A DNA stretch of 64,000 bases from Mobula birostris (taxonomy: Eukaryota). Position 1 is the first letter of the stretch. Each line of letters starts with the position of its first letter. The stretch covers positions 8,281,223 through 8,345,222 of the forward strand of contig NC_092391.1 of NCBI RefSeq assembly GCF_030028105.1, read 5' to 3'. The notes below the pieces were generated by a model. It was given only the letters and a program-made list of their open reading frames with translations. It made no database searches and was not told where the DNA came from. Position numbers and translations under genes: made by a program. Shown in pieces: positions 2,645 to 61,495 of this stretch.

Positions 2645-3608
2645 GAATTTTAATGGCGGTTGACGGTGCAATTTAAAGGTGCATTACCACCACCAACTGG
2701 ACTGGAGTGTGGTGTAGAGTTGGGAAATAAAACCCCTACTGATTCTTTATCAACTGAAAAATAAATTACCCCAAAAAAGCCCTGTAGATTTTAAATAATA
2801 AAAGACAATATTGTGAATTAAATTAAAGTCACTTCCATAACTTTGTGAAGTTTTTAAATGAAAACTGTTAATCCCCAAAGCTGGCAGTGCAGCCTTGCGT
2901 CTGCTTTCTTTCAACCCTGTATGCTTCACATTGTGAAAGAATGTGTTCAACTGTTTCATAATGACGACACCAACACACCCCAGAGTGATGTTTTCCAACA
3001 ATATATAAGGAATAATTAAGCACAGTACGTCCAATTCTAATTCGAGTCTATATGATTCCTTCCCTTGTTGTCTTACCCCCCTTCTCCTATCAATCCAACT
3101 GTTTTATGTATTCTGTAAAGAGATCTCCCCTTATCTCCACTATCCCACAAGACCTGTCATAATCCCCTAATTCTTAGCCCCACCGACCCCTTAGTTTCTG
3201 ACTTGCTAAGTGGAAGATCTATATCCACAGATGAACTTTTAACAGCTTTTTTGGCCAAACAATCAACCTGCTCATTCCCCTCAACACTTCTTTGTGCAGG
3301 AATCCATAAGAAGAGGACATGTAGGCCAATACTTTGAATATGAAATAAAGTTTGAAGAGCTTCCAACGGTAAATCAGACCTACTGCTAGAATGACCTGTC
3401 TTAAGACTAGTCAAGACTGAAAAAGAATCTGAACAAGTTATAACTTTGCAGGGACAGATTTCCTCCACCCACTGTAAGACCAAAATGACGGCAATCAGCT
3501 CTGCGGTATACACTGATAAATAAGTCGTTAGTAAGACGCTTCTTTATGTTACCTGTAATTCAGGCTTAGAACAACCACACCAACATTTCCTGTTAAATTA
3601 TCTTTTGA
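2645..3608 (-). mobile_element. 3' fragment of an I/Nimb-clade LINE with RNase H, inserted in Tc1 copy A
   Basis: ORF 3157-3513 (YTAELIAV...CSDS...WIPA...GNEQVDCLAK) is an RNase H. 3' UTR motif CCAGTTGGTGGTGGTAATGCACC. Degenerate 11-bp TSD CAGCTGGACCT/CAGTTTGACCT. Confidence 0.75.
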
Positions 3609-5269: not shown

Positions 5270-5495
5270 TAAACGCAAGAGATTCTGCAGATGCTGGAAA
5301 TCCAAAGCAACACACACAAAATGCTTCAGGAACTCAGCAGACCAGGCAACATCTATGGAGAGGAATAAACAGTTGACATTTCTGACCGAGACCCGATGAG
5401 TCCCAGTGAAAGGTCTCGGCCCGAAACACCGACTGTTGATCCTCTCCATAGATGCTGCCTGACTTGCTGAGTTCCTCCAGCATTGTGTGTGTGTT
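5270..5495. mobile_element. Palindromic Penelope-derived mini-element with a decayed hammerhead core
   Basis: Inverted arms AGGAACTCAGCAG...CATCTATGGAG / CTCCATAGATGCTGCC...GAGTTCCTCC. Confidence 0.75.
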
Positions 5496-5996
5496 ATTCT
5501 GCAATATATTCTCAGTGTTTAGTGTTTTGAGTTGAAGTTGGTCACAGGCCATTGATGTTGTTACCATTGAGAAGTGCTTCACCTGGAGAGAGCTAAGCGG
5601 GCGACAAAAGGAAGGGGGAAGACCACAGCTTCCATCCGAAGCTAAAAAGGGACCATTGCATCGGAGTAGTCGATCAATCCCCAGACACGAGATACACTCA
5701 CCGGTTCAGCCAAGTTGCAAGCTTGGCATTGAGTGACCCCACCACTAGTCCAGCCCAACATGAGCCTCTCCACACCAATCCATCTGGACATCGGGGGCAG
5801 GGGGGAATTGTTTAGTAGATTTGCACCACCTTCCTAGAACAGCAGCGGGTGGCAAGGGTTGTTTTATTAGCCCCATGGCATTTCCCAGAAGGGAGCTTTA
5901 GGAGAAGGCAGGGGGTGTAGTTCCCACGATGATTTTGTGATGGTGAGTTCCAGCCAGTGACCTTTTCTGCTGACCTGAGCTATCACCGTTATTCCA

Positions 5997-6673
5997 AGCA
6001 GCACACATCAAAGTTGCTGGTGAACGCAGCAGGCCAGGCAGCATCTCTAGGAAGAGGTACAGTCCCAGTGGTCACACATTTTAATTCCACGTTCCATTCC
6101 CATTCTGATATGTCTATCCACGGCCTCCTCTACTGTGAAGATGAAGCCACACTCAGGTTGGAGGAACAACACCTTATATTCCGTCTGGGTAGCCTCCAAC
6201 CTGATGGCATGAACAGTGATTTCTCAAACTTCCGCTAATGCCTCACCTCCCCCTCGTACCCCATCTGTTATTTATTTATATACACACATTCTTTTTCTCT
6301 CTCTCTTTTTTCTCCCTCTGCCCCTCTCACTATACCCCCTGCCCATCCTCTGGGTTTCCCCCCCCCTCCCCCTTTTCTTTCTCCCTGGGCCTCCCGTCCC
6401 ATGATCCTCTCATATCCCTTTTGACAATCACCTGTCCCGCTCTTGGCTCCATCCCTCCCCCTCCTGTCTTCTATCATTTTGGATCTCCCCCTCCCCCTCC
6501 CACTTTCAAATCTCTTACTAGCTCTTCTTTCAGTTAGTCCTGACGAAGGGTCTTGGCCCGAAACGTTGACTGTACCTCTTCCTAGAGATGCTGCCTGTCC
6601 TGCTGCGTTCACCAGCAACTTTGATGTGTGACGCTTGAAATTCCAGCATCTGCAGAATTCCTTGTGTTTGTGA
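5997..6673 (+). mobile_element. 5'-truncated Penelope-like element: GIY-YIG C-terminus, pseudo-LTR and inverted pLTR fragment
   Basis: Peptide PVVTHFNS...LRLEEQHLIFRLGSLQPDGMN is typical of the Penelope endonuclease. Inverted repeat about 6003-6063 vs 6569-6630. TSD-like CCGTTATTCCA/CCATTATTCCA. Confidence 0.85.
6536..6571 (+). ncRNA. Minimal type I hammerhead ribozyme in the Penelope pLTR
   Basis: AGTC-CTGACGA-A-GGG(TCTTGG)CCC-GAAA-CGTT-GACT. Stem I AGTC/GACT, CUGANGA and GAAA boxes, stem II, palindromic ACGT stem III, GUU cleavage triplet. Confidence 0.7.
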
Positions 6674-10705: not shown

Positions 10706-12076
10706 CTCTTTGTCCAAAAACGCTTCTCTTGGCCTTCCTGGTAAAAACAGTCAAAGTTTCTTCAGACAGCCCCGCTTCACAATAGCACCTCCTCCAGGGC
10801 TGTTAACAATTTCTGGCAACTGGGTGCTACCAAGACCAATTTTAAAGTTCAAAGTAAATTTATTATCAAATACATCTATCTCACCATATATAACCCTGAG
10901 GTTTATTGTTGTGGCTGTGCACAACTATGTATCGATTAAATAAAAACCCTGGACACTAGAGATGGCTTTAACTGGTGTATTCACAGTGTAACGAGAGAGA
11001 GCAATCAATCCACATGCATAGACAACAGATCAATATGTAGTGCTGGGGAGGTGGGGGGAGGTCATTGCTATAAAAGAAATAGATCCATATAAAAGAAATA
11101 GATCCGTATAAAAGAAATAGATCTGTATATTGCATTTATTCTCTTGAAGAAAATTTAACTTAATTCAATTTATGATGGGTGGTTAGTGAACATTGGAGGG
11201 CCATTCCTAAATCCATTGAGGTGTATTCACTTCATCAACGCTGGTGGAAGGTGAATATGGTGATAAATTTCTGTCGGTCGGATGAGCCATTACACTGGGG
11301 ATACAATCTGGAGCAGCATATAGTCTGCTGGTGGATCTCAGCAGGTCGAGCAGCATCTGTGGGGGAGAATTGTTGTCCTTTAGGGTCGAAAGTCTGCATA
11401 TCTGCAGAGTTTTGAACCAAAGTGTTGACAATAGAACATAGAACATTACAGCACAGTACAGGCTCTGGGCCTATGATGTGCCGGCCTTTTAACCTACTCC
11501 AAGATCAATCTAACCTTCCCTCCTACATATCCCTCCATTTTTCTATCATCCATGTGCCTATCTAAGAGGTTCTTAAATGGCCCTCATGTATCTGCCTGAC
11601 CTGCCATGCTTGGCAGGGTTTTCCACGCATCCACCACACTCTGTGTAAAAAAACCTACCTCTGACATCACATCCCCCTACATTTTCCTCCAGTCACCATA
11701 AAGCTATGACCCCTTGCATTAGCCATTTCCACCCTGGGAGAAAGTCTCTGGCTGTCCATTCAATCTACGCCTCAGGTCCTGATGAAGGGTCTTGGCCCAA
11801 AACGTCAAATATTTACTCCTCTCTACAGCTGTTGCAGATCAGTTCCTCCACCATCTTGTGTGTGTTGCTCAAGATTTCCAGCATCAGCAGAATCTCTTGT
11901 CTTTATGACTGTTGTTTCCATGCACTCGTTATGTGGTATCTCCTGTGGCCATTGACTGTATAAAGTCTGTTCAGAGATGCTCTGCCATCTGATTTCTGAA
12001 TAAACATTGAACCAATGAATCCTCACTACTTTTTTATTTCTATTTTTGCACTACTTATTTAATTATTTAATATATT

Positions 12077-13679
12077 CAGTGCCTATAAAAAATATCGGAA
12101 GTTTTCATTTTTTATTGTTTTACAACATTGAATCACAGTGGATTTAATTTAGCTTTTTTGACAATGATCAACAGAAAAAGACTCTTTCGTGTCAAGATGA
12201 AAGCCAATATGTATAAAGTAATCTAAATTAATTACAACTATAAAACGCAAAATAATTGATTGTATTAGTATTCACCCCTTTTAATATGACACACCAAATC
12301 ATCACTGGCGCACCCAGTTTGTTTTAGAAGTCTCATAATTAGTTAAATGGAGATCACCTGTGTGCAGTCAAGGTGTTTCAATTGACTGTAGTAAAAATAC
12401 ACCTGTATCTGGAAGGGCTAACTACTGATGAGCCAGTACTCTGGCAAAAACTACACCATGAAGACAAAATAACACTCCAAGCAATTCCACAAAAAAGATT
12501 ATTGAAAAGCACAAGTCAGGAGATGGATACAAGAAAATTTCCATCACTAAATATTACTTGGAGTACAGTTAAGTCAATTATCAAGAAATGGAAAGAATAT
12601 GGTACAGCTGTAAATCTGCCTGGAGCATGCCATCCTCAAAAACTGAGTGACCGTGCAAGAAGGGAACTAGTGAGGGAAGCCACCAAGAGACTTGCGACAA
12701 TTCTGGAGAAGTTACAAGTTTTGGTGGCTGAGATTGGGGAGACTGTGCATACAACAACTGTTGCCCAGGTGTTTCACCAGTCACAGCTTATGGGAGAGTA
12801 GCAAAGAGAAAGCTACTGTTGAAAAAAGCTCACATGAACCCTCGGGTAGAGATCGCCAGAAGGCATGTGGGAGACTCTGAAGTCAGCTGGAAGAAGGTTC
12901 TATGGTCTGATGAAACCAAAATTGAGTTTTTTGGCCATGAGACTAAACGCTACGTTTGGTGTAAGCCAAACACTGCACATCATCAGAAACACACCATCCC
13001 TACCATGAAGCATGGTGCTGGCTGCATCATGCTGTGGGGTTGCTTCCCTGCAGCAGGCCCTGGAAGACTGTGAAGGTAGAGGGTAAAATAAATGCAGCAA
13101 AATACAGGGAAATCCTGGAGGAAAACCTGATGCACTCTGTAGAGAACTGCGACTTGGGAGAGGATTTGTTTTCCAGTAAGACAATGAACCCAAGCATAAA
13201 GCCAAAGCTACACAGGAATGGCTTAAAAATAACAAAGTTAATGTCCTGGAGTGGCCAAATCAGAGTCCAGACCCCAATCCAATTGAGAATTTGTGGCTGG
13301 AGCTGAAAAGGGCTGTTCACTCACGATCCCCATGCAATCTGACAGAGCTTGAGCAGCTTTGTAAAGAAGAATGGGGGAAATTGCAGTGTCCAGATGTGCA
13401 AAGCTGATAGAGACCTATCCACACAGACTCAAGGCTGTAATTGCTGCCAAAGCTGCATCTACTAAATACTAACTTGAAGGGGGTGAGTAATTATACAATC
13501 AATTATTTTGTGTTTAATAATTGTAATAAATTTAGACCAATTTGTTTTCACGTTCACATGAAGAGTCTTTTCTGTTGATCAGTGTCAAAAAAGCCACATT
13601 AAATCCAGTGTGATTCAATATTGTAAAACAATGAAACATAAAAACTTCCAAGGGTAATGAATACTTTTTATATACACTG
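12077..13679 (+). mobile_element. Full-length decayed Tc1/mariner transposon, copy B (DDE transposase pseudogene from about 12458)
   Basis: CAGTG...CACTG|TA ends with the same inverted repeats as copy [15 protein letters not shown] and [11 protein letters not shown] motifs, interrupted by stops and frameshifts. Confidence 0.92.
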
Positions 13680-17645: not shown

Positions 17646-18569
17646 AGTGACAAAAAAATCCTTAAAGTGAGATCGATGGTTGTAGGAACGTTTCAATGTG
17701 TGTAGTTTTGTCCACGAGCCTGATGGCTGAGGGGTAGTAACTGTTCCTGAACGTGGTGGCGTGAATCCTGAGACACCTGCACCTTCTGCCTGATGGCAGC
17801 AGTGAGGAAAGAGCAGGAACTCTGATGATGGACGCTGCTTTCCTACAACAATGCTTCATGTCCATGCGCTCAATCATTGGGAGGGCTTTACCCGTGATAT
17901 ACTGGGCCAAATCCACTACATTTTGTAGGATTTTCTGTTCAAAGGCATTGGTGTTTCCATACCAGGCTGTGATGCAGCCAGTCAATATACTCTCCACCAC
18001 ACATCTATAGAAGTTTGTCATAGTTTTAGATGTCATGCTAAATCTCCGCGAACTCTAAAGGAAGTAGAGACACTACCCTGCTTTCTTCACAATTGTACTT
18101 GCATGCTGGGGCAGGACTGTTCCTCTGAAATGGTAACACTCAGGAATTTAAAGTTGCTGACTATCTCCACTTCTGACCCTCCAGTGAGCACTGGCTCACG
18201 GACCACTGTGCAGTTTTCAGATGTTAAGAAGAGAGCAAATTGTTTTAAAGACACGTTATAAATATTATGCTGTCTAAAACAGCTCACTGTATCTGGCTGG
18301 TGGGAGCCATCAGCAGCAAATTGAAGCCCCCGGGATTGGGAAGAGCTGATTATTTGATTTGCCAGTGGTTGTGTTGCTGTGGGTCTGGGGTCCTGATTCT
18401 GTCACTGTGGTTGTTTAAACCCCTGCCATTGGTTGGCAGCACGCAGTTTCAGAGAACAAGACTGCGGAAGACAAGGCCTGAGTCTGTGAGTCTGCTGGGG
18501 AAGTCAAAGGCCCAGTGTTTGTGAATGTATGAATCCGCTGGAAGCTGAAGACAGCCTCTTCTGGGGTTA

Positions 18570-21500
18570 GAGGACTGTGTGTGTATAGGGAGGACTGTGT
18601 GTGCGTAGTGAGGTCTGTGTGTGCGTAGGGAGGACTGTGTGTGCGTAGGGAGGACTGTGTGCATAGGGAGGTCTGTGTGCGTAGGGAGGTCTGTGCGTGC
18701 GTAGGGAGGACTGCATGTGTGCGTAGGGAGGACTGTGTGTGTAGAGAGGACCGTGTGTGTGTAGGGAGGTCTGCATGTGCGTAGGGAGGTACGCGTGTGC
18801 GTAGGGAGGACTGTGTGTGCATAGGGAGGTCTGTGTGCGCGTAGGGAGGTCTGTGTGCGCGTAGGGAGGACTGTGTGCGCGTAGGGAGGACTGTGTGTGT
18901 GTGTGTGTGTGTAGGGAGGACTGTGCGTGTGTGTAGGGAGGACTGCGTGTGCGTAGGGAGGTCCGCATGCGCGTAGGGAGGACTGTGTGTGCGTAGGGAG
19001 GTCTGTGTGCGTGTAGGGAGGACTGTGTGCGCGTAGAGAGGACTGTGTGTGTGTGTGTATAGGGAGGACTGTATGTGTGTAGGGAGGACTGTGTGTGTGT
19101 AGGGAGGACTGTGTGTGCGTAGGGAGGTCCGTGTGTGCATAGGGAGGACTGTGTGTGCGTAGGGAGGTCTGTGTGCGCGTAGGGAGGTCTGTGTGTGCGT
19201 AGGGAGGACTGTGTGCGCGTAGGGAGGTCTGCGTGTGTGTAGGGAGGACTGCGTGCGTGTCGGGCTGCATGCACGTAGGGAGGACTGTGTGTGTGTAGGG
19301 AGGTCTGCATGTGCATAGGGAGGACAGTGTGTGTGTAGGGAGCACTGAGTGTGTGTAGGGAGGTCCGTGTGTGCGTAGGGAGGACTGTGTGTGTGTAGGG
19401 AGGTCTGTGTGCACGTAGGGAGGACTGTGTGCGCGTAGGGAGGTCTGCGTGTGTGTAGGGAGGTCTGCGTGTGTGTAGGGAGGACTGCGTGCATGTAGGG
19501 AGGACTGCGTGCACGTACGGAGGACTGTGTGCACGTAGGGAGGACTGTGTGTGCGTAGGGAGGTCTGCGTGTGCATAGGGAGGGCTGTGTGTGCGTAGGG
19601 AGGTCTGTGTGTGCGTAGGGAGGTCTGTGTGTGCATATCGAGGTCAGTGTGTGCGTAGGGAGGTCTGTGTGCGCGTAGGGAGGTCTGTGTGTGCGTAGGG
19701 AGGACTGTGTGCCTGTAGGGAGGATTGTGTGTGTGTAGAGAGGACTCTGTGTGTGTAGGGAGGTCTGTGTGCGCGTAGGGAGGACTGTGTGTGTGTAGGG
19801 AGGTCTGTGTGCACGTAGGGAGGTCTGTGTGCGCGTAGGGAGGTCTGTGTGTGCGTCGGGAGGTCTGTGTGTGCGTATCGAGGTCAGTGTGTGCGTAGGG
19901 AGGACTGTGCGTGCGTAGGGAGGTCTGTGTGTGTGTATCGAGGTCAGTGTGTGTGTAGGGAGGACTGTGTGCACGTAGGGAGGACTGCGTGTGTGTAGGG
20001 AGGTCCGCGTGTGAATAGGGAGGACTGTGTGCCTGTAGGGAGGACTGTGTGTGTGTAGAGAGGACTCTGTGTGTGTAGGGCGGTCTGTGTGCGCGTAGGG
20101 AGGACTGTGTGTGTGTAGGGAGGTCTGTGTGCACGTAGGGAGGTCTGTGTGCACGTAGGGAGGTCTGTGTGTGCGTCGGGAGGTCTGTGTGTGCGTATCG
20201 AGGTCAGTGTGTGCGTAGGGAGGACTGTGTGCGCGTAGGGAGGACTGCGTGTGCGTCGGGAGGTCTGTGTGTGCGTATCGAGGTCAGTGTGTGCGTAGGG
20301 AGGACTGTGTGCGCGTAGGGAGGACTGCGTGCACGTAGGGAGGACTGCGTGCACGTAGGGAGGACTGTGTGCGCGTAGGGAGGACTGTGTGTGCGTAGGG
20401 AGGTCTGCGTGTGCATAGTGAGGGCTGTGTGTGCGTAGGGAGGTCTGTGTGTGCATATCGAGGTCAGTGTGTGCGTAGGGAGGTCCGCGTGTGAATAGGG
20501 AGGACTGTGTGCCTGTAGGGAGGACTGTGTGTGTGTAGAGAGGACTCTGTGTGTGTAGGGAGGTCTGTGTGCGCGTAGGGAGGACTGTGTGTGTGTAGGG
20601 AGGTCTGTGTGCACAGTCTGTGTGCGCGTACGGAGGTCTGTGTGTGTGTATCGAGGTCAGTGTGTGTGTAGGGAGGACTGTGTGCGCGTAGGGAGGACTG
20701 CGTGTGTGTAGGGAGGTCCGCGTGTGAATAGGGAGGACTGTGTGCCTGTAGGGAGGACTGTGTGTGTGTAGAGAGGACTCTGTGTGTGTAGGGAGGTCTG
20801 TGTGCGCGTAGGGAGGACTGTGTGTGTGTAGGGAGGTCTGTGTGCACGTAGGGAGGTCTGTGTGCGCGTAGGGAGGACTGTGCACGTAGGGAGGTCTGTG
20901 CACGTAGGGAGGTCTGCGTGTGAATAGGGAGGTCTGTGTGCCTGTAGGGAGGACTGTGTGCGCGTAGGGAGGACTGTGTGTGCGTAGGGAGGTCTGCGTG
21001 TGCATAGTGAGGGCTGTGTGTGCGTAGGGAGGTCTGTGTGTGCATATCGAGGTCAGTGTGTGCGTAGGGAGGTCCGCGTGTGAATAGGGAGGACTGTGTG
21101 CCTGTAGGGAGGACTGTGTGTGTGTAGAGAGGACTCTGTGTGTGTAGGGCGGTCTGTGTGCGCGTAGGGAGGACTGTGTGTGTGTAGGGAGGTCTGTGTG
21201 CACGTAGGGAGGTCTGTGTGCACGTAGGGAGGTCTGTGTGTGCGTCGGGAGGTCTGTGTGTGCGTATCGAGGTCAGTGTGTGCGTAGGGAGGACTGTGTG
21301 CGCGTAGGGAGGACTGCGGGTGCGTCGGGAGGTCTGTGTGTGCGTATCGAGGTCAGTGTGTGCGTAGGGAGGACTGTGTGCGCGTAGGGAGGACTGCGTG
21401 CACGTAGGGAGGACTGTGTGCGCGTAGGGAGGACTGTGTGTGCGTAGGGAGGTCTGCGTGTGCATAGTGAGGGCTGTGTGTGCGTAGGGAGGTCTGTGTG

Positions 21501-23058
21501 TGCATATCGAGGTCAGTGTGTGTGTAGGGAGGTCCGCGTGTGAATAGGGAGGACTGTGTGCCTGTAGGGAGGACTGTGTGTGTGTAGAGAGGACTCTGTG
21601 TGTGTAGGGAGGTCTGTGTGCGCGTAGGGAGGACTGTGTGTGTGTAGGGAGGTCTGTGTGCACAGTCTGTGTGCGCGTACGGAGGTCTGTGTGTGTGTAT
21701 CGAGGTCAGTGTGTGTGTAGGGAGGACTGTGTGCGCGTAGGGAGGACGGCGTGTGTGTAGGGAGGTCCGCGTGTGAATAGGGAGGACTGTGTGCCTGTAG
21801 GGAGGACTGTGTGCGTGTAGTGAGGACTCTGTGTGTGTAGGGAGGTCTGTGTGCGCGTAGGGAGGACTGTGTGTGTGTAGGGAGGTCTGTGTGCACGTAG
21901 GGAGGTCTGTGTGCGCGTAGGGAGGACTGTGCACATAGGGAGGTCTGTGCACGTAGGGAGGTCTGCGTGTGAATAGGGAGGTCTGTGTGCCTGTAGGGAG
22001 GACTGTGTGCGCGTAGGGAGGACTGTGTGTGCGTAGGGAGGTCTGCGTGTGCATAGTGAGGGCTGTGTGTGCGTAGGGAGGTCTGTGTGTGCATATCGAG
22101 GTCAGTGTGTGCGTAGGGAGGTCCGCGTGTGAATAGGGAGGACTGTGTGCCTGTAGGGAGGACTGTGTGTGTGTAGAGAGGACTTTGTGTGTGTAGGGAG
22201 GTCTGTGTGCGCGTAGGGAGGACTGTGTGTGTGTAGGGAGGTCTGTGTGCACGTAGGGAGGTCTGTGTGCGCGTAGGGAGGTCTGTGTGTGCGTAGGGAG
22301 GTCTGTGTGTGTGTATCGAGGTCAGTGTGTGTGTAGGGAGGACTGTGTGCGCGTAGGGAGGACTGCGTGTGTGTAGGGAGGTCCGCGTGTGAATAGGGAG
22401 GACTGTGTGCCTGTAGGGAGGACTGTGTGTGTGTAGAGAGGACTCTGTGTGTGTAGGGAGGTCTGTGTGCGCGTAGGGAGGACTGTGTGCACGTAGGGAG
22501 GTCTGTGTGCACGTAGGGAGGACTGCGTGCATGTAGGGAGGTTTGTGTGTGCGTAGGGAGGACTGTGTGCACGTAGGGAGGTCTGCGTGTGCGTAGGGAG
22601 GACTGCGTGCATGTAGGGAGGTCTGTGTGCGTAGGGAGGTTTGTGTGTGCGTAGGGAGGACTGTGTGCACGTAGGGAGGTCTGTGTGCGTAGGGAGGTCT
22701 GCGTGTGAATAGGGAGGACTGTGTGCCTGTAGGGAGGACTGTGTGCGCGTAGGGAGGACTGTGAGTGTGTAGAGAGGACTCTGTGTGTGTAGGGAGGTCT
22801 GTGTGCACGTAGGGAGGTCTGTGTGCACGTAGGGAGGTCTGTGTGCGAATAGGGAGGACTGTGTGTGTGTAGGGAGGACTGTGTGTGTGTAGGGAGGACT
22901 GTGTGCGCGTAGGGAGGTCTGTGTGCGCGTAGGGAGGACTGTGTGTGTGTAGGGAGGACTGTGTGTGTGTAGGGAGGTCTGTGTGCGCGTAGGGAGGTCT
23001 GTGTGCGCGTAGGGAGGACTGTGTGTGTGTAGGGAGGACTGTGTGTGTGTAGGGAGGA
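18570..23058. repeat. 20-bp minisatellite (GTAGGGAGG[A/T]CTGTGTGTGC), about 225 units, with a higher-order repeat
   Basis: Directly visible tandem array in WDR38 intron 2. Confidence 0.98.
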
Positions 23059-23298
23059 ATAGGGTTTGTTTTGCTGCTGTTACTTTGTGGCTTGTTGTGT
23101 TCTGTGTTGTTCTGCTCTCAGCGTTGTGGACATGCTATGCTGCCGGTGGGGATGTGCGGCAACACTTGCAGGCTGCCCCAGCACAACCTGAGGTGTGTTG
23201 GTTGTTAACGTAAATCACGCATGTCACTGTGTGTTTCAATGTGCAGGTGATAAGTAAATCTGAATCTGACACTCTGAGTATTGTTTCTGCTCCAACAG

Positions 23299-23415
23299 GC
23301 CCAGTGAGAGCTTGTGCCTTCTCTGCTGACTCCATTCTCTTCGCCAGTGGGTCCGCTGATTGTATGGTCAGGGTGTGGGACACGGCAAGAGGCAACTGTC
23401 TGCACATTCTCAAAG
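23299..23415 (+). CDS. WDR38: WDR38 exon 3 (PVRACAFSADSILFASGSADCMVRVWDTARGNCLHILK-G)
   Basis: Acceptor CCAACAG|, donor AAG|GTAGGC, WD40 repeat, phases consistent with exons 2 and 4. Confidence 0.93.
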
Positions 23416-24149
23416 GTAGGCGAGCACGACAAACCTCATCCTCTCCCACGGTGAACCTATCAGCGCTCACTTTCAGTCAGGACAGGGATTCTTGAGGGAG
23501 AGGGTATGGGATACAAAGGGCTGGGCGTGGGGATTGGATTTTGCTGCATTACCAATGGTACAATTACAGTACCTCCAGGCCGCGGACCGATAACGGGTCG
23601 TGAAGCACACAGGGTTGCGGTGGTAGCCGGAACACACCCAGCACATCTTCAAGAAAAAAGCCAAAATAAACCAGCCAGTTAATTAGGTGCCGCCCGGCAC
23701 GTAAGCCGACATTTATGCGGATATGCTTGCCAAGGTGGAGGCAGATATGTCAGGGACATTTAAGAGATTCTTGGATGGGCACATGGAGGGTAGATACATG
23801 GAGGGCTATGTGGGAGGGAAGGGGTAAATTGATTTTAGAGTAGATTAAAGGCCGGCACAACATTGTGGGCTGAAGGGCCTGTACTGTGCTTTAGTGTTCT
23901 ATGTTCTATGTACTGCGATCTCTTGTACAGGGTGAGGTCACTTATTCGAACCTGTCTGCTTTCAGACACGTTACACGTGGAACATAAAAGTGTTGTTCTG
24001 ATGCGAACTCATACCCTGGATGTAGACACTGGGTGGCTCCAGGAACATTTGACATGAATATGTGCGGCAATTTCAAAACGCCAAAACGAAGAACAGGAAA
24101 CACTACAGCACAGTACAAGCCCACAATGTTGTGTCAAACTTATTTCCAT

Positions 24150-40334: not shown

Positions 40335-40539
40335 TAAAGCAACTCACCACTAGGCTAAATGAGCTTAAAGAAATTAACATTGGAATATAAACTAGTAGGG
40401 AATTTAAAGCGCCTGAAAAATAATAAACTACCAGAACTGAGCTGCAGGTGGAAATCGTATTCGTGTGTTCAATTATAACACCTGAGATGTTTGGATAGGT
40501 ACATGGATGAGAGGGATTTGGAGGGCTCTGGTCTGGGTG

Positions 40540-41380
40540 ACAGAATGGTGTTGTCATAATAACCTGGACTTGAACATCACAAAAACCAAGGAGCTGATAG
40601 TAAACTTCAGGAAATCAAAGCGCGTCGAGCACTCCGCTCTGCACATATACGGGAAAGAGGTGGAGAGAGTAGAGAGTTTCAAGTTCCTCGGCGTCCACAT
40701 CTCGGCTGATCTCACCTGGACTGCCCATATCTCTTATCAGGTGGGGAAGGCCCAACCGAGGCTCTACTTCCTAAGGAAGCTAAAGCACGCTCTCCTCCCT
40801 CATCACCTGCTGATCAACTTCTATCGGACAACTATAGAGAGCCTCCAGACGTATTGCTGTGCAGTGTGGTTTGCCAGCTGCACAGAACAGAACAGGAAGG
40901 ACTTGCAGCGGGTGGTGAGGGTAGCAGAGCGGGTTATTGGCACATTACCCTCCCTCAGAGACATTTATACTGGCAGACTTCAAAAGAAGGCTACTTGTCT
41001 TTCAAAGGATCCTACTCATCCTGGACATCACCTGTTTTCCCCTCTACCTTCTGGGAAGAGATACAGAGCATTAAGGACGAAAACAAAGAGACTCCCTAAC
41101 AGCTTCTACCCACAAGCAGTGGAATGTATAACACCCCCTTCCCTTCTCCTGCCCCCCTCCTAAGACGGCGGCAGCTAAATGCATCACACTTCCAGGAATG
41201 GCAGGTGTGCAATAGTCCTACCCCCCCCCCATCCATATATTATTAATTTTGGACTGCACTCCTGAGGTTTTAGAGTTTATTTTATGTGCATATTCTTTGT
41301 CATGCTGCAAAACGTTGAGCTGCTAAACTGTGTTTCATTGCTCCACAACAATGACAATAAAGATATTCTATTCTATTCTA
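40540..41380 (+). mobile_element. 5'-truncated Rex1/Babar LINE with an uninterrupted ORF2 C-terminus
   Basis: EWCCHNNLDLNITKTKELIVNFRK...HPGHHLFSPLPSGKRYR, followed by AATAAA and an (ATTCT)n tail. Confidence 0.88.
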
Positions 41381-41407
41381 GATGGAACTAGGCAGAAAAT
41401 CAGACCA

Positions 41408-41615
41408 AACAACAGGAATACTGCAGATGCTGGAAATTCAAGCAACACACATCAAAGTTGCTGGTGAACGCAGCAGGCCAGGCAGCATCTCTAGGAAGAC
41501 GTACAGTCGACGTTTCAGGTCAAGACCCTTCGTCAGGACGAAACGTCGACTGTACCTCTTCCTAGAGATGCTGCCTGGCCTGTTGCGTTCACCAGCAACT
41601 TTGATGTGTGTTGCT
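41408..41615 (-). mobile_element. Young palindromic Penelope-derived mini-element with a hammerhead core
   Basis: Perfect 14-bp TSD AGAAAATCAGACCA and about 77-bp inverted arms. Minus strand reads GTC-CTGACGA-AGGGTCTTGACCT-GAAA-CGTC-GAC. Confidence 0.85.
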
Positions 41616-43169
41616 AGAAAATCAGACCAGCATGGACTCGATGAGCCTGTTTCTGCATTGCAGCACTCCATGTTAAGGTTTAGAAATAGGTGGCTAAATT
41701 GGTTGTCATCTCAAATTATTTTACAACAGTTCGCTAAAATGGCAGCAGATGTAACCCCATGATTTGCAGAAAATATCAGTTAGCTCAACATCAATAATTA
41801 GAAATTGCTCTGAGTTTTCAGTAAATGGTGACATGACACAAATAAAGAGATTGGTTCGATTTGATGTTGGTTTACAAAAGAGAAATCAGGATTGACAAAT
41901 AAAGAGGAAACCAGCGGATCTGGTATATCGAGACTTTCAGTAACAAGCCCCACTAGAGGTTATAAAGGAAAATTAGAGAACAGATTTGGGTTAATGTACT
42001 GCTAGAGATTGTGAATGCAAAGCAGCAGGAGGCTGTCACAGATGGGATGCTGCCAGAATCAGTGTAGGGCTTGCATTTGTGCACATTTTTCAATGCTACA
42101 AATTTCCCAATTAATGGATACAGATCAATTTCTACAAAAGTTTATTACATTAAAACTCATACCTGGAGAAATGTAAACGTGTGTAACACTATCACAGTGT
42201 AAGCAACCCAGGTCCAATTCTACCACTGTCTGTGGGAGTTCGTATGCTTTCCCCGTGACTGCGTGGGGTTGTGCCCACATTCTAAAAACGTACAGGTTAA
42301 TAGGTTTATTGGTCACATTAATGTAATTGGGCAATGTAGGCTTGTTAGGCCAGAAGGGCTTGTTATCATGTATCTCTAAATAAAGCCTCATCTTCTATGG
42401 GGAATATCAGCAGCCTCAAACAGTTAAGAACTACTCAATCACCATTGAGCACACCAACATCATTTATGCTTACAGGAGCCTCTGGACCCACACCACCAGG
42501 TTCAAGAGCAGTTATTACCCCTCAACCATCAGGTTCTTGAACCGGAGTGGACAGCTTAACTCAACTTCACTCACCCCCACACTGAACTGTCCCCACAACC
42601 TACAGACTCACGTTCAAGGACTCATCTCATGTTCTCCATATTGCTTATTTATTATTATTTTAACTTTGTATTTGCCTTTTGTTGTCTTTTGCACATTGGT
42701 TGTTTGCCTGTCTTGTCGTGTGCAGTCTTTCATTGATTCTATTGCAATTCTTTGTATTTACTGTGAATGCCCACAAGAAAATGAATCTCAGGGTTGCATA
42801 TGGTGACATATTCAGAATGCACTTTGAAGTTTTCTTTGAAACTGTGATTTTACTCCCAAGGATGCAGTAAATGGACTGTACTAAACTGAAGCACACAGGC
42901 AATGGCCACCGCTGGCATTTGGGTGCTCGAGCTCCCCAACCACCCCATCACCATCTTGAATAGCTTGTTTGTTCTAATAGGCTCCTTTCCATGAACATGA
43001 TCTAAAAGGACCCTTCTATGTTACTGGGCTTTACATGTGCATTTGGAAGTCTCCCTATGCATTCAGTACCCTTACTGTAAGGAGTGGACTAGTCAAGCGA
43101 CTAACTAAATATCTGAGGGACCACCATCAACAGGTCATTCAGCTGACCTGACCTGCAGAAGGTCCCACA

Positions 43170-60467: not shown

Positions 60468-61495
60468 AGAAACATAGAAAACCTACAGCACAATACAGGC
60501 CCTTCGGCCCACAAAGCTGTGCTGAACATGTCCCTACCTTAGAACTACCTAGGTTTACCCATAGCCCTCTATTTTCCTAAGCTCCATGTACCCATCCAGG
60601 AATCTTTTAAAAGACCCTATTGTTTCTGCCTCCACCAGTGCCCTCAGCAGCCNNNNNNNNNNNNNNNNNNNNNNNNNNNNNNNNNNNNNNNNNNNNNNNN
60701 NNNNNNNNNNNNNNNNNNNNNNNNNNNNNNNNNNNNNNNNNNNNNNNNNNNNNNNNNNNNNNNNNNNNNNNNNNNNNNNNNNNNNNNNNNNNNNNNNNNN
60801 NNNNNNNNNNNNNNNNNNNNNNNNNNNNNNNNNNNNNNNCAAGCACCTTAAAACTATGCCCTCTCGTGTGAGCCATTTCAGCCCTGGGAAAAGCCTCTGA
60901 CTATCCACACGATCAATGCCTCTATTAGGTCAACTCTCATCCTCTACCGCTCCATGGAGAAAAGGCCAAGTTCACTCAACCTATTCTCATAAGGCATGCT
61001 CCCCAATCCAAGCAACATTCTTGTAAGTCTCCTCTGCACCCTTTCTATGGTTTCCATGTCCTTCCTCCAGTGAGGCAACCAGAACTGAGCACAGTACTCC
61101 TAGTGGTGTCTGACCAGGGACCTATATAGCTGCAACGTTACCTCTCGGCTCTTAAACTCAATCCCACAATTGATGAAGGCCAATACACCGTATGCCTTCT
61201 TAACCACAGAGTCAACCTGGACTCGGACCCTAAAATCCCTCTGATCCTCCTCACTGCCAAGAGTCTTACCATTATTGCTATATTCCACCATCATATTTGT
61301 CCTACCAAAATGAACCACCTCACACTTATCTGGGTTGAACTCCAACTGCCACTTCTCAGCCTGGTTTTGCATCCTATCAATGTCCCGCTGTAACTTCTGA
61401 CAGCCCTCCACTCTATCCACACCCCCCCCAACCTTTGTGTCATCAGCAAATTTACTACCCATCCCTCCATTTCCTCATCCGGGTCATTTATAAAA
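60468..61495 (-). mobile_element. Young CR1 LINE fragment, same subfamily as 48495-49242
   Basis: KFADDTKVGG RT motif and KKAYGVLAFI. Contains an assembly gap. Confidence 0.9.
60653..60839. other. Assembly gap (187 N)
   Basis: Run of n characters. Confidence 1.

Follow-up and report, generated by a model that had tools for sequence, protein, structure and literature searches.

A 208-bp hairpin insertion of Mobula birostris composed of the 3' end of a Penelope-like element and an inverted piece of that end

The insertion at 41408-41615 of the window (the whole stretch of 64,000 nt that was analyzed, to which all coordinates without a prefix refer) consists of the 3' end (the pLTR and the tail) of a Penelope-like element (PLE) of apparently Neptune type, together with an inverted piece of that end. 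It was almost certainly formed independently as a truncated PLE insertion, and the locus belongs with tens of thousands of other dead Penelope-type insertions, whose anatomy has been described before. The 5'-truncated copy was probably built at landing, each target nick priming its own cDNA and the ends then being joined (twin priming). By this route, two short copies of the element 3' end would be placed head to head within one target-site duplication (TSD). Propagation of the hairpin as a retrozyme-like unit was largely refuted by a census of junctions.

Structure of the insertion

The features of the insertion and of its main relatives in the window are collected in Table 1. An earlier note on this DNA, made from the sequence alone, had described a 208-bp insertion with a perfect 14-bp TSD and two inverted arms of about 77 bp with two mismatches; the insertion and its repeats were confirmed, and the paired arms (41441-41516 and 41540-41615) were found to be 76 bp each, with two mismatches. 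The arms meet at 41539|41540. On the minus strand, the 76-nt inverted piece comes first and is followed by the element end, from helix I of the hammerhead to the 33-nt tail. In the intact parent copies (L171 and L170, see below) the tail is continued by the 5' end of the ORF region. The minus-strand fold of the insertion was predicted at -159.6 kcal/mol (z = -23.5), and none of 200 shuffled sequences was as stable. No host exon was found in a Pfam scan of 35 frames (33 of the 70 window ORFs and two parent frames), and the intronic setting named in the earlier note is only putative.

Table 1. Coordinates of the insertion, its parts and its relatives in the window
Feature	Position	Strand	Evidence or remark
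Left TSD copy, 14 bp	41394..41407		identical to 41616-41629
One-sided Penelope tail, 33 nt	41408..41440	-	maps to parent positions up to ~+55
Direct, tail-bearing arm (element 3' end, hammerhead helix I at parent -78 to tail)	41408..41539	-	95.7% to L171
Minimal type I hammerhead motif	41505..41540	-	core scan; CUGACGA...GAAAC-GUC
23-nt spacer at hairpin centre	41517..41539		fold and arm alignment
Inverted arm, 76 bp, tail-less, parent -55 to ~+20	41540..41615	+	97.5% to parent
Right TSD copy	41616..41629		identical to 41394-41407
Longer insertion of the same young family, same plan	5995..6670	+	GIY-YIG C-terminal frame; BLAST match to arms
Old palindromic insertion of a related subfamily, decayed hammerhead, different junction	5270..5495		~77% to parent; arms 77% alike

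The intact minus-strand hammerhead core named in the earlier note is present, though helix I is only 3 bp. The CUGACGA half lies at 41536-41530 and the GAAAC-GUC half at 41516-41509, with predicted cleavage between 41509 and 41508; the inverted arm lacks the CUGANGA half. The hammerhead fold would cost 26.5 kcal/mol over the minimum free energy (MFE) in the full element, 5.8 kcal/mol in the direct arm alone and 4.3-8.9 kcal/mol in parent or unpaired contexts. GAAAC-GUC was paired with a probability of at least 0.99 in the predicted fold of the insertion. The ribozyme is thus predicted to be sequestered in the 76-bp stem, and the motif would be a passenger. An Rfam scan of the window returned no hammerhead family at E <= 1. 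According to the available part of PMC4209133, minimal PLE hammerheads gave no detectable cleavage as monomers.

The Rfam family mir-4529 matched the hairpin at 41465-41591 with 49 bits, with some letter-level similarity. This score is below the gathering threshold of 88, and the match was taken as a look-alike.

The parent element

In the 4.0-Gb genome, a 41-nt motif that runs across the end of the pLTR and the tail had 23,951 exact matches, and a control had none. Positions in the element were numbered relative to the first base of this motif. On this scale helix I of the hammerhead begins at -78/-79, cleavage would fall at -48|-47, and the end of the tail lies at +47 to +56.

Near-intact copies in partial tandem were found by walking upstream, namely L170 (C8:14996500-15006400) and L171 (C16:86570700-86580600), in each of which the pLTR is present twice; the unit of L171 is 3,722 nt. 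A single ORF was seen in L170, L171 and a further copy, L172. It has about 1,100 codons in L170 and L171, with a duplicated proline/serine-rich segment in its N-terminal part, and in L172 it matches RVT_1 (E 1e-5) and GIY-YIG (E 2e-4), both slightly under the Pfam cut-offs. By its sequence, with an RT, a C-terminal GIY-YIG and a partial tandem forming pLTRs, the parent family is an EN+ PLE. The linker upstream of GIY-YIG reads C-x4-C-x2-C. A CX2-5CxxC linker is described as present in Neptune and Nematis and absent from Penelope and Poseidon in the available part of PMC8557442. A Poseidon-type label was rejected because this motif is present, and the parent is best described as putatively Neptune-type, Neptune being preferred over Nematis from the vertebrate host range given in the accessible part of bioRxiv 10.64898/2026.07.22.740005.

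Relatives in the window

The earlier note had described a dense family of palindromic, ribozyme-bearing elements in the window. Relatedness held for 10 of the 11 relatives named there, which matched the element or its parent by BLAST (11305-11395 had no match). The palindromic and ribozyme-bearing character was overstated: a self-inverted match was found in only 4 of the 11, and a strict core scan of both window strands returned only two hammerhead cores, that of the insertion and one at 6536-6571 (GUU). Most of the relatives are old fragments from related subfamilies, with an identity of 69-86% to either the parent or the element.

The one relative from the same young family is the copy at 5995-6670. 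It is the GIY-YIG Penelope copy to which the arms had been called nearly identical, and they do match it at 91-97%. Its inverted arm (5995-6064) is followed by a direct arm (6063-6670) that carries the GIY-YIG C-terminus, the 3' UTR, the GUU hammerhead and the tail, and the copy is flanked by a TSD of about 13 bp with one mismatch.

Other features were also seen in the window. Several overlapping stop-free frames of 270-620 codons on the minus strand at 18415-23476 had no credible Pfam match and are probably a tandem repeat. Fragments of other mobile elements were found at 3160-3543, 12343-12798, 40486-41160 and 61103-61474 (RNase H, Tc1-type transposase HTH, an ALKBH8_N match and an RT piece). 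The ALKBH8_N match is presumably a LINE-derived frame.

Census of junctions

For the survey, the first 10 Mb of C1 supplied 97 copies with an exact anchor, picked regardless of junction; 10 of 107 anchored copies were left out for inexact anchors, and 3 of 100 listed places were not recovered. The direct arms ended anywhere from 0 to -2250. An adjacent inverted arm of the 3' end was present in 53 of the 97 copies, with 49 distinct junction coordinates among these 53, and 30 copies had no neighbouring piece at all. Same-strand neighbouring cores within 600 nt were rare (2 among 159 cores at 90 survey loci). Lengths thus grade into one another, junctions are nearly unique and tandem cores are rare, which places the short hairpin at one extreme of a graded series of truncated insertions. 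One of the two readings in the earlier note, that Penelope 5' truncation and inversion yield such copies repeatedly, is supported by the lengths and the junctions.

Genome-wide, the three spacer classes of short hairpins gave at least 856, at least 4,693 and at least 1,095 copies (at least 6,644 in total); these are lower bounds, since exact patterns were counted. Among the 50 hairpins listed for each class, many junctions were seen, and the recurrent ones lay mostly at short microhomologies. The pattern of the junction at 41539|41540 gave 19 genome matches at no more than one mismatch, four of which proved to be a different junction. The remaining 15 loci, the insertion included, share the junction; their flanks are unrelated, they carry at least five subfamily haplotypes, and the tail is on the long arm in nine and on the short arm in six. 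This mirror-image placement of the tail shows that they are not one unit copied whole, which would have kept one arrangement.

These counts bear on the other reading of the earlier note, a non-autonomous, ribozyme-defined hairpin RNA of retrozyme type spread as a unit by Penelope RT/EN. The junction common to 15 loci, the thousands of short hairpins and three further junctions each common to two TSD-flanked copies would fit such a unit, and animal retrozymes are derived from PLE pLTRs in the available part of bioRxiv 10.64898/2026.07.22.740005. Against it, the same-junction loci are few beside the at least 23,951 family ends and take two mirror-image structures in several subfamilies; their junction accounts for only 1 of the 50 hairpins listed in its size class; tandem arrays are lacking in the survey; the ribozyme is predicted to be sequestered; and each of the three further junctions, which are complex, is limited to two or three copies. 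We regard this reading as very improbable. The note had taken a unique junction in every copy as the mark of simple truncation. This was nearly what was found, except that junctions recur at microhomologies and three pairs share theirs locally.

Short head-to-tail repeats of a hammerhead segment, with a period of about 32 nt, were observed at the junction in L194/L195 (C1:9528232-9528293) and L180. They are likely the result of template slippage, and might be a seed for retrozyme-like arrays.

Origin of the two arms

The starts of the arms in the survey were fixed, at about +47 to +56 for the tail arm and mostly at +9 to +28 for the other. Both arms were enclosed by a single TSD of 8-19 bp in 39 of 48 two-arm copies, a count that omits 5 of the 53 inverted copies with an outer end below +5. 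Solo direct copies without a tail ended at about +12 to +23 and had a TSD of their own. In 21 of the 53 copies the inverted arm was the one that extended further 5'. Unequal arms could also stem from asymmetric deletion at the palindrome centre, as is known from mammalian palindromes.

At subfamily-diagnostic sites, the two arms were discordant in 10 and concordant in 23 of 33 informative copies. A C/G difference between arms at -30 was found in 5 of 33 copies (15%), against a background of 3 in 1,403 (0.2%, p 4e-8), and a C/T difference at -42 in 6 of 31 (19%), against 23 in 1,697 (1.4%, p 4e-6). Two elements counted from both ends were omitted from the haplotype counts and from the arm-pairing counts given below. 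At the 15 loci with the junction of 41408-41615, the arms agreed in 13. Later gene conversion could also make arms discordant, and the local sharing of junctions shows some exchange between copies. The C>G change at -40, at which the arms of the insertion itself differ, was rejected as a subfamily mark because it matches background mutation: among 195 arms either G or A was seen at this site, and A was the commoner among the 100 listed, as background mutation would give.

The purified PAc protein of the anole nicks and extends both strands in vitro, from two start sites that bound the tail (PMC11167929). When the two arm starts are matched to these sites, the simplest reading by analogy is that each nick primes one cDNA; this biochemistry is taken from PAc, which belongs to the Poseidon clade and not to that of the parent. 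Of the two cDNAs, one would begin where the tail ends (+47 to +56), and the start of the other (+9 to +28) would lie some 35 nt inward. The arms would be copied, at least sometimes, from different RNA molecules, and the cDNA ends would be joined at a microhomology or through a short insert. The product would be a dead end, without the ORF-side sequence that PAc needs for priming.

An inverted arm might instead arise by fold-back, or self-priming, of a single cDNA, the centre being trimmed asymmetrically afterwards; the insertion would still be an independent, truncated PLE. Self-priming was proposed for rotifer Penelope palindromes in the available part of PMC3846280. It would suit the arms that agree at diagnostic sites, which are the majority, the 13 of 53 copies in which the arm ends lie no more than 5 nt apart and those hairpin centres that are perfect palindromes, and it would also lead one to expect short arms coupled with short and long with long. 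The insertion at 41408-41615, with its shorter inverted arm and two mismatches, is compatible with fold-back and fits twin priming as well. What favours twin priming is the inverted arm being the longer in 21 of 53 copies, in some by up to about 1.6 kb, and the mixed haplotypes in 10 of 33, far above background. The +9 to +28 end, moreover, is also seen as the 3' end of solo direct copies, and the two-site extension by PAc likewise speaks against fold-back, which we consider unlikely. A literature search that covered few subscription papers turned up no publication in which PLE palindromes are linked to twin priming or shown to have mixed arms.

Stop peak 5' of the hammerhead

Many arms stop just upstream of the hammerhead. 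Stops at -75 to -86 were found in 26 of 72 direct arms, compared with 9 of 46 in the next 114 nt (p about 2e-24), and in 15 of 34 inverted arms. Short arms were paired with short and long with long (28, 4, 1 and 13 copies; p 3e-7). The peak, which corresponds to about 2932-2943 of L171 in the parent pLTR, has a pyrimidine tract and YAG that are kept in old subfamilies too. The sequence after the tract at the -79 edge is one that we take to be Inr-like, and the edge resembles both an initiator and a 3' splice site.

The stop counts and the pairing of the arms suggest that the template has a boundary immediately 5' of the ribozyme, probably the RNA 5' end in cases of priming at the upstream pLTR. 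Short hairpins would then be abundant because the template ends, or RT is blocked, at -75 to -86. As far as PMC4209133 and PMC2377424 are available, D. virilis has an intron whose end is at helix I, with the start site some 120 nt upstream, so that a splice acceptor or an RT block is also a candidate reading of the edge. Of 115 edges at two candidate acceptors, none matched upstream element sequence followed by GT/GC, as spliced copies would; a very short first exon would escape this search. At 100 listed -79 edges read by eye, the preceding base was G 26 times, A 11 times and C 63 times. When old subfamilies and microhomology were removed, solo copies had extra bases with a final G in four cases and a final C in four, with no clear cap-G signal.

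Short copies might also come from hammerhead-cut RNA, the template then having its 5' end at the cleavage site. Perfect palindromes centred on GTC^GAC are what such a template would leave, and they were seen in 5 of 50 listed hairpins of the shortest class (by eye) and in 2-3 of the 97 survey copies; GTCGAC is self-complementary, so microhomology accounts for them. Only 3 of 81 stops fell around the cleavage site (-52 to -47), one fifth of the rate at -75 to -86, and the insertion at 41408-41615 keeps the whole core upstream of the cut. In PAc, whose ribozyme needed protein, hammerhead cleavage was dispensable for insertion in vitro (PMC11167929). A hammerhead-cut template is the least credible of the explanations considered here.

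Junctions shared locally

Three pairs of copies share junctions that would be hard to make twice: L123/L129 (at L206/L207; C1:7803673 and 8444264, 0.64 Mb apart), L124/L130 (at L203/L204; C1:7858847 and 8463060, 0.60 Mb apart) and L182/L190 (at L248/L249; C1:5630652 and 7777881, 2.1 Mb apart). The copies are TSD-flanked with unrelated flanks. All lie within 5.6-8.5 Mb of C1, and elsewhere in the genome only one match, with a mismatch, was found, on C5. The partners carry different subfamily bases in their arms, which indicates that it is mainly the hairpin centre that is shared. The three junctions were rejected as propagating lineages, there being two exact copies and one mismatched copy of one of them and two copies of each of the others genome-wide. 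Local sharing as a general rule was also rejected: among 50 hairpins listed along C1 (4-193 Mb), three pairs besides the seed pair were found by eye, their members 77-126 Mb apart, and none with members less than 5 Mb apart, with an exact pattern that misses partners (L129 was missed). The sharing may be regional in C1. Candidate causes are a nearby copy on which the cDNA ends were bridged, gene conversion following a break at the palindrome centre, or a local problem of the assembly.

A joint account is possible, though we hold it to be doubtful as a whole. Penelope palindromes would arise by twin priming through a dimeric RT/EN with two RNAs, the 5' end of which is at hammerhead helix I, and a palindromic copy within about 2 Mb could pass its hairpin centre on to another insertion, either new or already in place. 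The donation would proceed by bridging of cDNA ends or by conversion after breakage of a cruciform, and junctions would spread locally without a lineage of hairpin RNA.

The origin of PLE inverted repeats is called undefined in the available part of PMC8557442. The many young copies studied here, with mixed-haplotype arms, two fixed start sites and a stop peak, lead to testable predictions on it. Thousands of near-perfect hairpins of 70-110 bp could be a sizeable source of dsRNA, if transcribed.

Comparison with known systems

In twin priming of L1, both target nicks prime cDNA, the cDNAs are joined at microhomology and the TSD stays intact; the route proposed for PLEs shares all three. The two L1 cDNAs copy different parts of one RNA, whereas here both arms copy the same 3' end, which gives an inverted repeat. 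The Poseidon element PAc of Anolis has the same two insertion ends, about 35 nt apart and bounding the tail, with the hammerhead upstream; it is of a different clade, and the main text of PMC11167929 contains no analysis of inverted arms or junctions.

Metazoan non-LTR retrozymes, as far as described in the available parts of PMC7229834 and bioRxiv 10.64898/2026.07.22.740005, are likewise short and non-coding, with a type I hammerhead and a PLE pLTR ancestry. They consist of head-to-tail repeats with a hammerhead per unit and give linear and circular RNAs, whereas 41408-41615 has one core in a head-to-head hairpin and no fixed unit. It thus lacks two features that define retrozymes, namely hammerhead units arranged head to tail and a unit that multiplies as a family.

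The hammerhead itself has the type I core of the metazoan PLE minimal hammerheads in the available part of PMC4209133, with the extra nucleotide after A9, no helix III loop and palindromic 15.2-16.2; it differs in its helix I, which the junction has shortened to 3 bp, and in the pairing of its 3' half with the inverted arm. Dual minimal hammerheads on opposite strands, 100-700 bp apart, were noted there in 2014, and single ones were called "probably related to truncated PLEs".

The closest counterparts are the canonical EN+ PLE insertions (Neptune, Penelope/Poseidon and Nematis), to which the census adds the stop peak 5' of the hammerhead and the mixed-haplotype arms, neither being described in the available parts of PMC8557442, PMC3846280 and PMC2377424. 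As those parts describe them, the parents share one plan, with an RT, the CX2-5CxxC linker, a C-terminal GIY-YIG and a partial tandem of active type. The insertions have the same pLTR with a minimal hammerhead, an adjacent inverted truncated copy, a one-sided tail of 30-40 bp (33 nt here) and a TSD of 8-19 bp (14 bp here). Compared with these, 41408-41615 does not differ in kind and lies at the short end of their range.
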